From NCBI GenBank assembly GCA_040220235.1, contig JAVJTO010000051.1: a DNA stretch of 64,000 nucleotides. One strand, given 5' to 3'. This DNA is from Coleofasciculus sp. B1-GNL1-01. GTDB lineage: Bacteria > Cyanobacteriota > Cyanobacteriia > Cyanobacteriales > Coleofasciculaceae. This document shows, piece after piece, positions 51,797 through 63,470 of this stretch. The stretch's first letter is position 1. Each line of letters opens with the position of its first letter. The notes under the pieces are model-generated. The model was not told where the DNA came from and made no database searches. It saw only the letters and a list, made by a program, of their open reading frames with translations. Position numbers and translations under genes: made by a program.

Positions 51797-53509
51797 CTAC
51801 TCACCACCCTGAATGAAATCAGCCTGACGAAGCTGCGCGATCGCGACTCGGTTTTGCTGTAGATTATCTTGGTGTGATTGCTCCTCCTGCATCATCTGTT
51901 CAATATCTTCCTCTTCCCGTTCTAGCTGTGCTTGTAAGGCGGTGATTTGGGATTGGATAATCGCTTTCTGGCGGACAAAATCACGGCGCTTGCGCTCAAA
52001 TTCCTGTTTTCGAGTCACGTTCACGGCTTTTTCTTTTTCCTCTTGAATCCTTCGCGCCGTACCCGTCAGCACCATCCCTTCTCCCAAATAGACATCGACT
52101 AACTCGACTCCCTGCTTGGTTAATTTTAATTCCCGCACCTGATTGGAGTGTTGCATTCCACGAGATTTGAGGATAAAAAATACACGATTGCGTTCGCCAT
52201 TACTCTCCACAAAGCGCACCTCCAGCCAGGTATCCATTAACGAGGAAACGCCGATCTCAGTCTGCTCAACAGGCATCCCCCCTTGGATTAAATTCGTCAA
52301 AAAAACCGTAATTTGTTGGGATTTAAGCAGATCAATCAGACGGAAGAGAAAGGCTTTTGCCTGTAAGAGAGTACCGCCCATCGTCAGATTACTCATCGGG
52401 TCAATAATCACAACCGTGGGCTGAAACTCTTGAATTAAACTGTGGATTTGTACCAGGTGCATTTCTAAGCCATAAGCCGTCGGACGTCTCGCCTGAAACC
52501 GTAACAAGCCTTGGTTGACAAATTCCGGTAAATTAATGCCAACCGATTGCATATTGCGGATAATTTGCTGCGGGGCTTCTTCAAAGGCAAAATAGAGACA
52601 GCGTTCACCCCGCCGACAGGTGGCTTCAGCAAAATGTGCCGCCAACGTCGTTTTTCCCGTTCCCGCTGTACCTGTGATCAGAATACTGCTACCACGAAAA
52701 TATCCCTCTCCTCCCAGCATAGTGTCGAGGCGTTCAATCCCACTCGATATCCGTTCGTGGATTACGGTATGATCTAATCCCACGGATGTAATCGGCAATA
52801 CAGTAATCCCGTCTGAATTAATCAGAAAGGGATAGTCATTTGTCCCATGACTAGACCCCCGGTACTTGACAATTTGCAACTTACGGGTTGAAATATCTTC
52901 GTAGAGACGGTGATCAAGGCGAATCACGCAATCAGAAACATACTCTTCAATGCCATAACGAGTCAGAGAGTTCTCCCCTTTTTCCCCGGTAACAATTGCC
53001 GTAACCCCTTTCGTTTTCAACCAGCGAAATAACCGCCGCAACTCTGCCCGAACAATCGCGGTATTGGACAAGCCAGAAAACAGCACTTCAACGGTATCCA
53101 GGACAACTCGCTTGGCATCGATGGCGTCAATGGCACTACTGAGGCGAATAAATAAAGCTTCTAAATCATAATCCCCAGTTTCTTCAATCTCCTGCGGATC
53201 AATATAAACATAATCAATCAAGAGTTTTTCCGTTGCCGTCAATTCTTCTAAATCCCAACCTAAAGAGGCGACATTTTGCGTCAATTCTGCCGCTGTTTCT
53301 TCAAACGCCATGAACACACCCGGTTCTGAGTAGTCTAGGATACCTCGTACTATAAACTCCATCCCCATTAACGTCTTTCCACACCCGGCTGTTCCACAAA
53401 CCAGAGTTGTTCGTCCTAAAGGCAATCCGCCATCAGTAATTTCGTCTAATCCTTTGATCCCGGTTGGGCATTTGCAAAGTTGATTTTTGGCTAATGTAGT
53501 TTTTGACAC
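51797..53509 (-). CDS. kaiC: Double-domain KaiC homolog (KaiC2-like) with C-terminal coiled coil
   Basis: Two Walker A motifs (GTAGCGKT, GTAGTGKT), FEE twice, EEYVSD, VSSLMD (SS at the phospho-sites), KSRG; Gln/Glu-rich tail. Confidence 0.92.
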   Translation of the reverse strand: MSKTTLAKNQLCKCPTGIKGLDEITDGGLPLGRTTLVCGTAGCGKTLMGMEFIVRGILDYSEPGVFMAFEETAAELTQNVASLGWDLEELTATEKLLIDYVYIDPQEIEETGDYDLEALFIRLSSAIDAIDAKRVVLDTVEVLFSGLSNTAIVRAELRRLFRWLKTKGVTAIVTGEKGENSLTRYGIEEYVSDCVIRLDHRLYEDISTRKLQIVKYRGSSHGTNDYPFLINSDGITVLPITSVGLDHTVIHERISSGIERLDTMLGGEGYFRGSSILITGTAGTGKTTLAAHFAEATCRRGERCLYFAFEEAPQQIIRNMQSVGINLPEFVNQGLLRFQARRPTAYGLEMHLVQIHSLIQEFQPTVVIIDPMSNLTMGGTLLQAKAFLFRLIDLLKSQQITVFLTNLIQGGMPVEQTEIGVSSLMDTWLEVRFVESNGERNRVFFILKSRGMQHSNQVRELKLTKQGVELVDVYLGEGMVLTGTARRIQEEKEKAVNVTRKQEFERKRRDFVRQKAIIQSQITALQAQLEREEEDIEQMMQEEQSHQDNLQQNRVAIAQLRQADFIQGGE

Positions 53510-56701: not shown

Positions 56702-56894
56702 GAAAGGATTGGCATGACTGAATTTGACAAAAAGCGGCAAATTGCCATTTTCATTTTTGCATAATTTGGCTGGTCTGAACTCAGACCTGGCAGCGTTTTC
56801 AGTCCGCCTATTTCATCTAGCTCAATCCTTATCGGTTTGATCAATAATCTTATCGGTCAAACCCGTCCCAACAATTATAATTTTGTTTGAATCT

Positions 56895-57803
56895 TCACTT
56901 TGTCAAAAGCTGAACCAATTCCTGAGTGATGGGAAAACCCGTTTTAGACTCGACATGTAAAAACATCGGGCTAGGATTTGCCTCTAAAAATACATACTCA
57001 CCCTGGGGACTCAGACGCCAATCAATGGCTGTCCACTCCAGCATTAAGGCTTTGGTAATAGCTAAACACTGCTGTTGAACCCTGTCTGGTAATTCGACTG
57101 GACGTAATTCCGCCTGTAAGTCTTGCCGAAAGTCCAAAGCCGGAGAGCGAATTTCCACAGAATAGACAGATCCATTAATCACATAACTGCGAATATTTGT
57201 TCCGGGAATATATTCTTGTATTGTAACTGGCGAAAGACCGAGAACTAATTGCAGTCGTTCCGGTTCTAAGTGAGATTCTTTAAGCAACTGAGTATGTGTC
57301 CCGCCATAGACGGGCTTAAAAACTAGCATGGGCTGAGATTGAGCGAATTTAAGGACTTGCTCTGAATCATTACTAATTAAAGTCGCTGGAATCGCTATTC
57401 CTAATTGTTTGACTCGACTCAATTGGAGAGGTTTTTCTTTGTGAAATTGATAGGCTTGCCAAGAATTAACCCAACGAGCTGGGCAGGCTTGTATTAGAGT
57501 TCGCAGCGCACTCATTGAATCATTCAAGGCAATTCTTTGCTGTTCTGGCTCCAGATATGAGGGCAGATCAATACTGGAAAGACTACGCCAAAATACGCTA
57601 TGAATATCTTGAAAGTCTAACTTAACACCTTCAGGTAAGTTTAAACAACCCAACTGAGTATCAGGTTGCCAAGACATTTTTAACTGAGTAGGAAATAAGT
57701 GAGTATCTAAATAATAGACGGTTGCTCCTGCCTGGGTGAGCGCATTTTTCAGGTGTACAGCATGGACATCTTCAGAGTTGCCGAGGATTAAAATATTCAT
57801 CAA
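56895..57803 (-). CDS. RimK-like ATP-grasp ligase, probable graspetide synthetase
   Basis: SVFWR, WVN..AYQFHKEKPLQL..A.P.TLISND, KPVYGG, IQEYIPG, DFR, AIDW..YVFLEANPSP. Confidence 0.88.
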   Translation of the reverse strand: MMNILILGNSEDVHAVHLKNALTQAGATVYYLDTHLFPTQLKMSWQPDTQLGCLNLPEGVKLDFQDIHSVFWRSLSSIDLPSYLEPEQQRIALNDSMSALRTLIQACPARWVNSWQAYQFHKEKPLQLSRVKQLGIAIPATLISNDSEQVLKFAQSQPMLVFKPVYGGTHTQLLKESHLEPERLQLVLGLSPVTIQEYIPGTNIRSYVINGSVYSVEIRSPALDFRQDLQAELRPVELPDRVQQQCLAITKALMLEWTAIDWRLSPQGEYVFLEANPSPMFLHVESKTGFPITQELVQLLTK

Positions 57804-58065
57804 TCAAATCGGAATTCTCGATCAGGTGAGTTAGGAAAGATACCAATTAAGCCAATCAGTGTTGAATGTAATATCTACCTTAACTCACCAATTATAAGCC
57901 TTTAGCGCTTGCTCAATCATCTCTAAACTATGAAGCCGCAGTTAGAGAAATATCTGGCAACTTCATAATTTCTCTGACTGTTGACTGGGGAGGTATTTCT
58001 GCCATCTTATAGGAGAGTGTTGGCTGGCGTAACCCCAGTTCAATGACCAACAGTATGCTGATGTT

Positions 58066-58332
58066 CTAGATGAATGTAGACCAATCTAGGTCTCCACCCT
58101 CTTCACCTAACGCTGCACTTGTAACCCCTCCAGCATCAACGGGAAGCTTGGGAACGGTAAAGGGAAGGGGAAATCGTCTTGGAGGCTGCATATAACCGCC
58201 TTCTTCACCCACTGCCATAGTTGTAGCTTGTGCTGTTCCTCCTGTCACTTGTGAATTGTCTTCACTTATAACATCTTCCAGGTCATCAAGATGTTCTAAG
58301 TCCGAAACGTCTAGTTCAAATGGATGTTTCAT
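58066..58332 (-). CDS. Graspetide (omega-ester peptide) precursor with two cores
   Basis: Acidic leader ending SQVTGG; cores ATTMAVGEEGG and VTSAALGEEGG; co-oriented immediately upstream of the ATP-grasp gene. Confidence 0.82.
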   Translation of the reverse strand: MKHPFELDVSDLEHLDDLEDVISEDNSQVTGGTAQATTMAVGEEGGYMQPPRRFPLPFTVPKLPVDAGGVTSAALGEEGGDLDWSTFI

Positions 58333-61472: not shown

Positions 61473-62036
61473 GTGGTTATGAACAGAATTCATCAACTCT
61501 TTAAACTCGTTGTGATCGCGATCGCCTTCACCCTAGTTCCCCTAATTTATACTCCATCTGCCTTCGCGCAAACCACACCACCGATGGCTCAAGCCATTAT
61601 CAAAAGCACCTCAGATCCCGCCCAAGTGATGGGGACTGTTAAGTTTACCCAAACCCAAACCGGAATGCAAATTGTTGCAGATATTGATAATGCGCCTCTT
61701 GGCACCCATGGGTTTCACATTCACGAATTTGGCAGTTGTCAAGATTCGGGTAAAGCGGCGGGTGGTCATTTCAACCCCGATGCGGTCAAACATGGTGATT
61801 TGGTTAAAGATGGGTTTACCAGCGCCCACGCTGGAGACTTAGGCAATATCTCGGTAGCGAGTAATGGTGATGGGGGCAAAAGTGTCACTGTACCCGGACT
61901 CACCTTTCATGGAAACCAATATGCGATCGCAGGTCGGGCTGTGATTGTTCACGACCAAGCCGATGACTTTGGTCAACCTACGGGTCATGCAGGCGGACGG
62001 ATTGGCTGTGGTGCGATCGCCCTCGTCGGGTCATAA
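61473..62036 (+). CDS. sodC: Exported Cu/Zn superoxide dismutase
   Basis: Signal peptide (AFA), HGFHIHE, AGGHFNP..KHG..HAGDLGN, IVH..DD..G.AGGRIGCG. Confidence 0.93.
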   Translation: MVMNRIHQLFKLVVIAIAFTLVPLIYTPSAFAQTTPPMAQAIIKSTSDPAQVMGTVKFTQTQTGMQIVADIDNAPLGTHGFHIHEFGSCQDSGKAAGGHFNPDAVKHGDLVKDGFTSAHAGDLGNISVASNGDGGKSVTVPGLTFHGNQYAIAGRAVIVHDQADDFGQPTGHAGGRIGCGAIALVGS

Positions 62037-62075
62037 TTTTAAGGGAAGCTCCCCCAGCTTCCCTTCAACATGTCC

Positions 62076-63470
62076 TTATTCCTGCATCCCAGAATACAAG
62101 AGTCGGGCAAATAAACGAGCGCCATCATCACGCTTCAACTCGTCATAAGTGGGAGGTTCCCGGTGATGAAGATCCTTTAGATCCTGAAGCAGTTCAGGAT
62201 GGAATTGACAGGTAAATGAACGGCGGATCAACTTACTCTCGAAATCTTTGTAGTTAATACAGGTTGCTGAACATTCTGTCACGACTTCCGTTTCGTCAGC
62301 CGTTGAACAAAGAATTTCCACCGCAAAGGGAAGCTGCATTAACCAAGACAAAGGACTCCCAGCTAAAATATGCCGATGGGAGATAATCGCATCATGCAGC
62401 AGGCGATATGCCCAATTCGCGAAGAGAATCGCTTCTTCATTCACTTCATCGGAGTGGAACATGGAAATATTTAATTCATGTTCATACTCAATCGACGTAT
62501 CGATTACCCCTTCAAATTCATCAGCCGTCACCTCATGGGCGATAATTACGTCTTCGGGAATGTTAGATGTGTCGCTATCTGGAGATTCATAATGCAACAA
62601 TTGGCGATCGCCCACTTCTTTCTTTTCATTGGGACCAACCGCAAATTCCGGATCATCCCAGTTTTTGGCAACCAGGTGTCCATTTTTCTTCTTCACCTGT
62701 AACGTAGTTCCCACCTGTTGAATATGCTGGCAGACTTTTTGCAAAGATTTTAGGGCTTTACCATTGCGATCGCGTGCCAGATACTCTAGGCTGAATACCT
62801 CATCCACTGCTCGTTTAATTAACCGAACGTGAGATTGTGCTGCCAATTGATGTCCCAAGCAAATAAATAAAGCAGGCGCACTGGTAGGCGATCGCGAAAG
62901 CAGTAGTTTATCGGTGAATCTGTGGAGTTCCTCTAGGGAAATTTTGGCATCGTTAAAGCTGCTAGCATCGCGCACCGACGGATCACCGCCTTCTACAACC
63001 ACCGCTAACCCCGACGTGATCAGCGGTACGACTAACTCTGGATCAAGCATACCCGACGACCAAAACGGGAACAGCAGTGAATCACAATCGGCAATTTTCT
63101 GCGCCAAATACGCCACATTCAGCGAAGCCCGTACCTCTTCACCAACGTGATTGCACCCGACGTGTTCCCAGGGTTCGATCACCGCGATCGCATTCCGGAA
63201 TAAGCTCGGATTCTTCATCAGGAATTCCAAATCTTCCTGAGAATTAATCACCTTTTCCAACGGCAATCCTTTGCCCCATTCAAAGCCTTCGTTTTCCATC
63301 GTCATGGATAGGTCAGGCAAGGGATCGTCTGAATGGCGATCGGCTAAAAACCGACCCAACAAAATATGAACGGATTCAAAATCAGATCCCCCTTCACACA
63401 AGTAACCGGGGCTGAGTCTCCAATCGTTGGTTGTTAATATTTGAGGCTTAACGGATGATGAGTTTGACAT
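62076..63470 (-). CDS. Class I glutamine amidotransferase-like protein, large and atypical
   Basis: VVVEGG, ICLGHQ nucleophile elbow, FHSDEV, QFHPE (Cys-His-Glu triad). Confidence 0.75.
   Translation of the reverse strand: MSNSSSVKPQILTTNDWRLSPGYLCEGGSDFESVHILLGRFLADRHSDDPLPDLSMTMENEGFEWGKGLPLEKVINSQEDLEFLMKNPSLFRNAIAVIEPWEHVGCNHVGEEVRASLNVAYLAQKIADCDSLLFPFWSSGMLDPELVVPLITSGLAVVVEGGDPSVRDASSFNDAKISLEELHRFTDKLLLSRSPTSAPALFICLGHQLAAQSHVRLIKRAVDEVFSLEYLARDRNGKALKSLQKVCQHIQQVGTTLQVKKKNGHLVAKNWDDPEFAVGPNEKKEVGDRQLLHYESPDSDTSNIPEDVIIAHEVTADEFEGVIDTSIEYEHELNISMFHSDEVNEEAILFANWAYRLLHDAIISHRHILAGSPLSWLMQLPFAVEILCSTADETEVVTECSATCINYKDFESKLIRRSFTCQFHPELLQDLKDLHHREPPTYDELKRDDGARLFARLLYSGMQE

Follow-up and report, generated by a model that had tools for sequence, protein, structure and literature searches.

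A group 2 (plesiocin-type) graspetide gene pair in the cyanobacterium Coleofasciculus sp. B1-GNL1-01 and its predicted product

Introduction

Plesiocin (PsnA2/PsnB from Plesiocystis pacifica; group 2a, PDB 7DRM) carries TTxxxxEE cores that are modified by a single ATP-grasp enzyme. PsnB phosphorylates Glu and forms the inner ring first and the outer one second, its Arg213 binds the ring-forming Glu, the DFR motif is essential, and the enzyme is efficient only on the native TTxxxxEE core (Song et al., 10.1101/2021.03.09.434688). According to the same study, R72, R213 and the D(F/W)R motif are common to all graspetide groups and mark the class, not the group, and the contacts R101, R181, Y171 and F203 are largely specific to group 2a. 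Ki values of 16 and 7.5 nM are listed for plesiocin in a review. In the Rheinheimera rcp system (RcpA/B/C, group 2), RcpC cleaves the precursor behind its GG, and elastase is inhibited by one of the products with an IC50 of 0.31 μM (PMC11626197). PsnB (10.1101/2021.03.09.434688) and RcpB (PMC11626197) both work alone. Gra-5 from Glaciecola, also of group 2, undergoes one dehydration only; plesiocin, RcpA and Gra-5 are the group 2 members with tests that we met. Another synthetase, MirB, uses Ser donors (PMC13097080).

In cyanobacteria, the plesiocin branch is represented by cluster434 of Makarova et al. 2022 (PMC8939145), which is assigned to gr_02 and Branch_Plesiocin, is marked 'known, 2020_Lee', and has 16 members, 13 of them cyanobacterial; Coleofasciculus is absent from the supplements of that paper. 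A RODEO survey of 2026 (PMC13097080) captured the gene pair described here, and row 2571 of its supplementary file 2 gives the identical 88-residue precursor as group 2 with one synthetase. That row is a computational entry, and in the portions of the survey available to us no experiment, mechanism or evolutionary analysis accompanies this precursor. A characterised product of the widespread cyanobacterial group 2 branch was not found in the literature searched, which lay outside subscription papers (Lee 2020, Ramesh 2021); further graspetide sources were PMC9576775, PMC10125368, PMC7823629, PMC10496146 and PMC9846622.

The pair lies in a window (the whole stretch of DNA analysed) of 64,000 nt on contig JAVJTO010000051.1 of assembly GCA_040220235.1. 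It shares with cluster434 the HPFxL leader, the GG, the TTxAxGEEGG cores and one ligase of ~300 aa, and differs in that its leader departs from the consensus before GG. With plesiocin it shares the TTxxxxEE core, the single ATP-grasp enzyme and R72/R213/DFR; however, it has two cores where plesiocin has four, and one of the two begins with TS; its leader carries HPF in place of LFIEDL, and its spacer is long and Pro-rich. Like the rcp system it combines group 2 core variants with one ligase and a GG site, which in Rheinheimera is cut by a C39 domain, but the exporter is inside the rcp cluster (PMC11626197), whereas none adjoins this pair. The microviridins (group 1, MdnA/B/C) have in common with it the enzyme superfamily, the host phylum and the MvdD pre-ATP-grasp domain; in contrast to them, the pair has no PFFARFL, no TxKYPSD and one ligase at the locus, and it falls on a separate branch.

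Organization of the gene pair

Both genes are encoded on the minus strand. The precursor ORF (88 aa) occupies 58066–58332 and the ATP-grasp ligase, a predicted graspetide synthetase with an intact frame, 56895–57803; the latter has 302 aa from a TTG start or 301 aa from the ATG at 57800. The preliminary description, made from the sequence of the window, had placed the precursor directly upstream of the ligase. It is indeed upstream and co-oriented, but the genes are separated by 262 nt (57804–58065; family median 215 nt), a stretch that is single-copy in the genome. A promoter scan yielded 4 sites versus 4.6 expected and is therefore uninformative. Histidine kinases flank the pair on both sides, in agreement with the earlier remark that no protease or transporter is adjacent. 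Elsewhere in the window, 51797–53509 and 61473–63470 hold a KaiC-family ATPase near the kinases and a Cu/Zn superoxide dismutase, as well as a protein of 464 aa whose sole match, a weak one, is to glutamine amidotransferases.

The ligase

In Pfam, the ligase matches both the MvdD pre-ATP-grasp domain (ATPgraspMvdD) and RimK above cut-off. The expectation that automated annotation would yield 'RimK + hypothetical' was only partly right, as Pfam also gives the MvdD domain and the pair was picked up by the RODEO survey. With the graspetide models of NCBIfam the scores are 115–161 bits, all under cut-off, versus 58 bits for rimK_fam and 37 for LysX, both far below the cut-offs of those models. The ligase alone has PsnB (7drm) as its best PDB match at E 2.5e-28, and a family profile of 30 sequences has the same best match at E 4.9e-40; the MdnC-type chain 5ig9 follows closely (93.2 versus 102.5 bits and 133.6 versus 140.8 bits, respectively).

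PsnB residues were mapped through the ligase–7drm alignment (offset 20, checked at DFR, F203 and V201). The equivalents of R72, R192, R213, DFR and the ATP-site K/E/N are invariant in 79 of 79 ligases taken from the best 80 of 115 relatives, and the ligase of the window keeps R72, R204 and D223-F224-R225. Arg204, the equivalent of PsnB Arg213, is encoded at 57189–57191 (minus strand), and the DFR loop, residues 223–225, at 57126–57134 (minus strand), where it had been noticed before. The group 2a contacts R101, R181, Y171 and F203 are not kept: the ligase has S, Q, F and I, respectively, with a poor alignment around R101, and the leader reads HPFELDV instead of LFIEDL.

A FastTree tree of 143 rows, in which two PsnB-like proxies stood for PsnB, itself not among the rows, put the clade of the window on the side of the proxies and apart from the MdnC-like rows, although the supports are modest (81 and 92). 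A true MdnC-like protein, which scores 530 bits on 5ig9, branches apart from this clade. A second FastTree tree omits L038, L057 and L060 (L denotes a relative's locus), which had no stop-free match of at least 250 aa; L107 and L109 represent a single gene. The nearest named relative, L001, has a ligase 95% identical to that of the window, and the identity is 67–70% with ligases whose precursors match cluster434 members.

The genome (G000) has a second graspetide-type ligase at G000:C115:31663-32634 (L127:664-1635; C denotes a contig), which scores 207 bits on TIGR04187, below cut-off. Upstream of it is a 72-aa ORF with a TxTxTxxxExxDxD-like core, which is catalogued under group 6 in row 3998 (PMC13097080).

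The precursor peptide

A profile made from the precursors of 68 relatives, with the one studied here left out, matched this ORF alone (E 1.9e-15) among the 258,360 stop-to-stop frames of the 8.66-Mb genome. Two [TS][TS]xxxxEE motifs within 60 residues occur in two frames genome-wide, and the precursor is the only one shorter than 260 aa. It has no Pfam or NCBIfam family, no meaningful PDB match and no ESM Atlas match at 0.9 or above. A genome-wide search gave 0 PFFARFL-like and 0 TxK[YW]PSD motifs, as the preliminary description had claimed for the locus.

The ORF has the leader and the two cores first reported for it. The leader (residues 1–32, 58237–58332, minus strand) runs from HPFEL (58312–58326) to VTGG (58237–58248), the predicted cleavage site, and fits the cluster434 consensus in these elements. 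Core 1, TTMAVGEE (residues 37–44, 58201–58224, minus strand), is an exact TTxxxxEE and is found in 2 of the 133 family cores. It is followed by GG and the Pro-rich inter-core spacer (58123–58200, minus strand), and GG also follows core 2, exactly as had been described; Pro-rich spacers are common among the relatives. In core 2, TSAALGEE (residues 71–78, 58099–58122, minus strand), Ser takes the position of the first, inner ring of PsnA2. The preliminary description had remarked that this core needs a Ser-Glu ester. The TS variant is there, but it is not special: TS starts 5 of the 133 family cores and is also present in other catalogued group 2 precursors, with TSAALGEE itself in two others of the PMC13097080 table.

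From the leader, the cores, the family profile and the enzyme with which it is paired, we regard the assignment of the pair to group 2 (plesiocin-type) as nearly certain.

Family-wide pairing

Relatives were collected by a GTDB scan, and all locus counts rest on the best 80 of 115. A matching precursor is nearby at 69 of these 80 loci, with 71 ORFs in total, of which 58 precede the ligase on the same strand and 13 lie beyond it in convergent orientation. The conservation of the small ORF beside ATP-grasp genes, which had been proposed as a check, is therefore seen across the family. Among the 11 precursor-less loci, six have less than 700 nt of upstream flank, L055 has a partial precursor, and L057 has a split ligase. 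In L004, L007 and L059, the precursors are elsewhere in a genome with a single ligase; because three such lone-ligase genomes exist, action in trans does occur in the family. In the same best 80 of 115, 125 of the 133 cores start with TT, 5 with TS and 3 with ST, GG follows 132 of them, and 41 read TTLALGEE and 27 TTLAIGEE. By eye, the precursors of L017 and L053 are near-identical to printed cluster434 members. The earlier proposal of a plesiocin-type ligase, neither microviridin nor housekeeping RimK, is borne out by this pairing together with the NCBIfam scores, the 7drm match and the tree, in which the placement suggested as a check gave the plesiocin side.

Several relatives have unusual precursors. 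In Nostocales (L032, L034, L038, L039, L041, L045–L048, L051, L054) the cores are lengthened, e.g. TTxxxTAxxGExxEEGG, and could hold three nested esters. The ligases of these loci form one clade (FastTree support 98), and this 'extended core' group of the second tree includes L049 and L056, though no precursor is visible there. As far as these files were available, the 2022 supplements (PMC8939145) contain no lengthened cores, the 2026 table (PMC13097080) lists them under group 2, and no study of their ring pattern was found in the literature searched. L071:3064-4032 encodes a protein-sized precursor with 8 cores in ~320 aa, and in L072:2564-3934 and L075:2128-3414 several cores are fused to a shared C-terminal domain that belongs to no Pfam family, in proteins of ~420 aa. 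Orphan precursors far from the single ligase are found in L110–L116 (genomes G041, G042 and G043), three of them in tandem in G041 and mostly beside a PEP-CTERM-like gene. In L008–L044, mainly from Microcoleus, C(I/V)x(A/H)PC is conserved between the cores (30 of the 71 precursors of the best 80 of 115 relatives), and in many precursors the last unit is YTKAWFEGG, within which one ring could form.

Leader and candidate exporters

The genome has nine C39 matches, none of which is on the contig of the window; eight are strong, and those keep Cys and His. Only 8 of the best 80 of 115 relatives' loci have a PCAT- or HlyD-like gene within ~4 kb. In two of ten extended relative loci the order is PCAT, HlyD, PPIase, ligase and convergent precursor, and a PEP-CTERM-like gene is next in one of these two PCAT-linked loci and in several other extended loci. 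The PCAT-HlyD-PPIase order recurs without ligase and precursor in G000, on C109 and on C115 with its probable continuation C104, and the PCATs of the ligase-linked loci have their best matches in this genome at C109/C115 (58–59%). These two PCAT-HlyD-HetP operons (G000:C109:82436-95470; C115:39144-45757 with C104:47-2953) carry small Ser/Tyr-rich peptides with GG or GR leaders, the PPIase, and convergent RTX- or PEP-CTERM-like genes. The exporter-operon peptide tested has no NCBIfam family; the name 'CTB family bacteriocin' may apply to these peptides but serves as no evidence here.

Double-glycine substrates have a leader ending in GG and hydrophobic residues at −4, −7 and −12. The leader of the window has GG, V at −4 and V at −12, with N at −7. 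It departs from its family at two of these positions, since −12 is L or I in 62 of 66 and −7 is A or S in 60 of 66, and it ranks 68th of 69 on a leader profile built with the other members included, i.e., among the most divergent of the family. It compares poorly with the ELxxVxGG leaders of the genome (ranks 61–64 of 67). Compared with the exporter-operon peptides it is the best of 67 (score 51; the others have a mean of 30 and an SD of 4; 0 of 2000 shuffles), and with four exporter-operon-type leaders of other genomes it ranks 1, 3, 5 and 5. We treat this likeness as a lead, as the test was post hoc and on 20-residue strings.

The genomic arrangement and the precedent of RcpC for a C39 cut of a group 2 precursor after GG (PMC11626197) make C39 export in trans, as the preliminary description had suggested, somewhat more likely than not. 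A more elaborate history, which is speculative and in our view rather unlikely, is that within the genus the pair left the C39-exporter operon in which some relatives keep it and its leader then shifted towards the ISDLNHLEVVxEDN type of the operon peptides, so that the peptide still reaches the exporter in trans. The leader would then be bipartite, with HPF serving the ligase and an export signal borrowed from the operon peptides. The pair would be the sole remaining intact copy of a cluster repeatedly lost in the genus, and among cyanobacterial group 2 graspetides its product would be the first to be characterised, with an inner ring closed naturally by Ser and Glu.

Loss in the genus and selection

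The pair is intact in one of the nine genomes of the genus. In six of the eight congeners (G002–G007), remnants at the same site are broken in different ways: G002 is missing the precursor and most of the first half of the ligase; G003 and G005 retain ~100–150 nt of the ligase; G004 retains the spacer alone; in G006 the precursor is cut after core 1 at a contig end, and an intact ligase is elsewhere; in G007 the precursor is cut and the ligase has an internal deletion. The interruption in G006 is presumably a transposase. G001 and G008 have only a short repeat. Between the ligase and the downstream kinase, G002, G003 and G006 have a 404-aa ORF, which we take to be a formamidase and which is absent from the window (56741–56894).

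The ligase has been under purifying selection, with dN/dS values of 0.24, 0.17 and 0.07 versus three congeners; the value for the neighbouring kinase is 0.17. The first 48 codons of the precursor give 0.41 and 0.55, on few sites. RNA-library runs (n = 8) gave a share of only 0.09, and expression of the intact pair was not found in them. Four of the eight runs contain a relative's allele in which the precursor is deleted and the ligase cut. Because its joints are about those of G002, these runs are neither expression evidence nor an independent loss.

These data could also mean that an ancestral pair is being lost from the genus and that the copy in the window, although unbroken, is silent or partly functional, for example with core 2 unmodified and a drifted leader. 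The different remnant in each of six congeners, the divergent leader, the precursor dN/dS and the four runs that hold only the deleted allele all fit such a decaying relic. However, both frames are open, every catalytic residue is kept, and the ligase dN/dS is low; the odd leader is common to the congeners and is therefore not private decay. Patchy loss is, moreover, usual for such gene clusters. We consider the relic improbable.

Proposed reaction and product

The best explanation, which we hold to be probable, is an intact two-gene group 2 unit in which the ligase staples the cores, an exporter encoded elsewhere cleaves the leader, and a protease-inhibiting peptide is secreted. By analogy with PsnB, the ligase would bind the HPF-bearing leader. 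In a complex prediction, the ligase dimer with precursor residues 1–48 scored 0.41 versus 0.01 for the best control (the runs agreed to at least 39%, and the pLDDT of the partner was 37 or more). Of 157 solved pairs, 116 reached the complex-score mark, as did 2 of 215 mismatched ones; with scores of 0.60 or below, it was reached by only 18 of the 157 solved pairs and by both mismatches. The prediction lends weak support to ligase–precursor binding, and its pass may reflect memorisation by the predictor because a like PsnB complex is solved.

In core 1, the ligase would phosphorylate Glu43 with ATP, join it to Thr38, and then form the Thr37-Glu44 link, again following PsnB. In core 2, Ser72-Glu77 would be followed by Thr71-Glu78, and the result would be a ring within a ring of side-chain esters. 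Core 1 is very probably bicyclic. Ring formation in core 2 is less certain, as the first-forming ring has Ser there instead of Thr, and the chance that all four esters are made is slightly better than even. A cNMP-C39-ABC exporter with HlyD, at G000:C109 or C115, would then cut after VTGG, as suggested by the Rheinheimera system and by synteny. The predicted product is a 56-residue two-hairpin peptide with a monoisotopic mass of 5834.86 Da unmodified and 5762.82 Da after four water losses. The preliminary description had envisaged a bicyclic hairpin in two variants; the two cores agree with this, but a single chain carrying two hairpins, as in plesiocin, appears likelier. The released peptide would be expected to inhibit serine proteases, an activity to which plesiocin and RcpA point and which we judge somewhat more probable than not.

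The esters might instead form in a product that is not a diffusible inhibitor, with the rings stiffening or protecting a secreted sheath or surface peptide co-exported with RTX-like and PEP-CTERM-like cargo. The relatives' loci do lie among RTX Ca-binding and PEP-CTERM-like genes, and the cores of L072 and L075 are fused to a C-terminal domain in proteins of ~420 aa. However, the tested group 2 products, plesiocin and the Rheinheimera peptides (for the latter, PMC11626197), inhibit proteases, and the core loop residues of the family are conserved as in plesiocin. A surface role seems slightly more improbable than a decaying pair.

Also conceivable is a ligase that needs a PpiC-type partner in trans, as MirB (group 21) needs MirC, so that the two genes alone make nothing. 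A PpiC-type gene, often after RTX-like genes, is directly 5′ of the ligase at 15 of the best 80 of 115 loci (L003–L007, L050, L055, L058, L059, L062, L064, L065, L069, L073, L079), among them those of the sister ligases L004 and L007; in NCBIfam this gene best matches TIGR04500, the family of MirC; the genome has two orthologues (60–62% identity); and the spacers are Pro-rich. However, TIGR04500 gives only 64 bits where its cut-off is 180. Of 41 genomes, 12 contain the PPIase but no intact ligase of the family, and 4 of the 7 whose ligase is intact lack a PPIase match at E 1e-50. The PPIase sits in the exporter operons of the genome and therefore tracks the exporter, and PsnB and RcpB, as noted above, need no partner. 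An obligate PPIase partner, none of which adjoins the pair, is rejected on distribution, with no strict co-occurrence over the 41 genomes, and we regard a partner of this kind as very improbable.

A housekeeping RimK/LysX or microviridin ligase beside an incidental small ORF, to which the Pfam RimK match and the close 5ig9 score would lend themselves, is refuted by the conserved precursor pairing and disfavoured by the NCBIfam scores, the lack of microviridin motifs genome-wide and the separate branch of the true MdnC-like protein, and is thus virtually excluded.

Implications

The pair is a real, correctly identified group 2 graspetide unit that is already catalogued down to its exact precursor. 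It had been foreseen that an exact match to a known group would take away the novelty and leave the identification intact; with the precursor in print as group 2, the novelty is gone and the identification stands. As a discovery its value is small, since the class, the cyanobacterial subfamily and the precursor are all catalogued. The intact two-gene unit nevertheless offers a small, clean test of whether Ser in the ring that closes first is tolerated by an enzyme of group 2. Synteny and the leader comparisons point to particular exporters, which bears on how graspetides without a clustered peptidase may be released.
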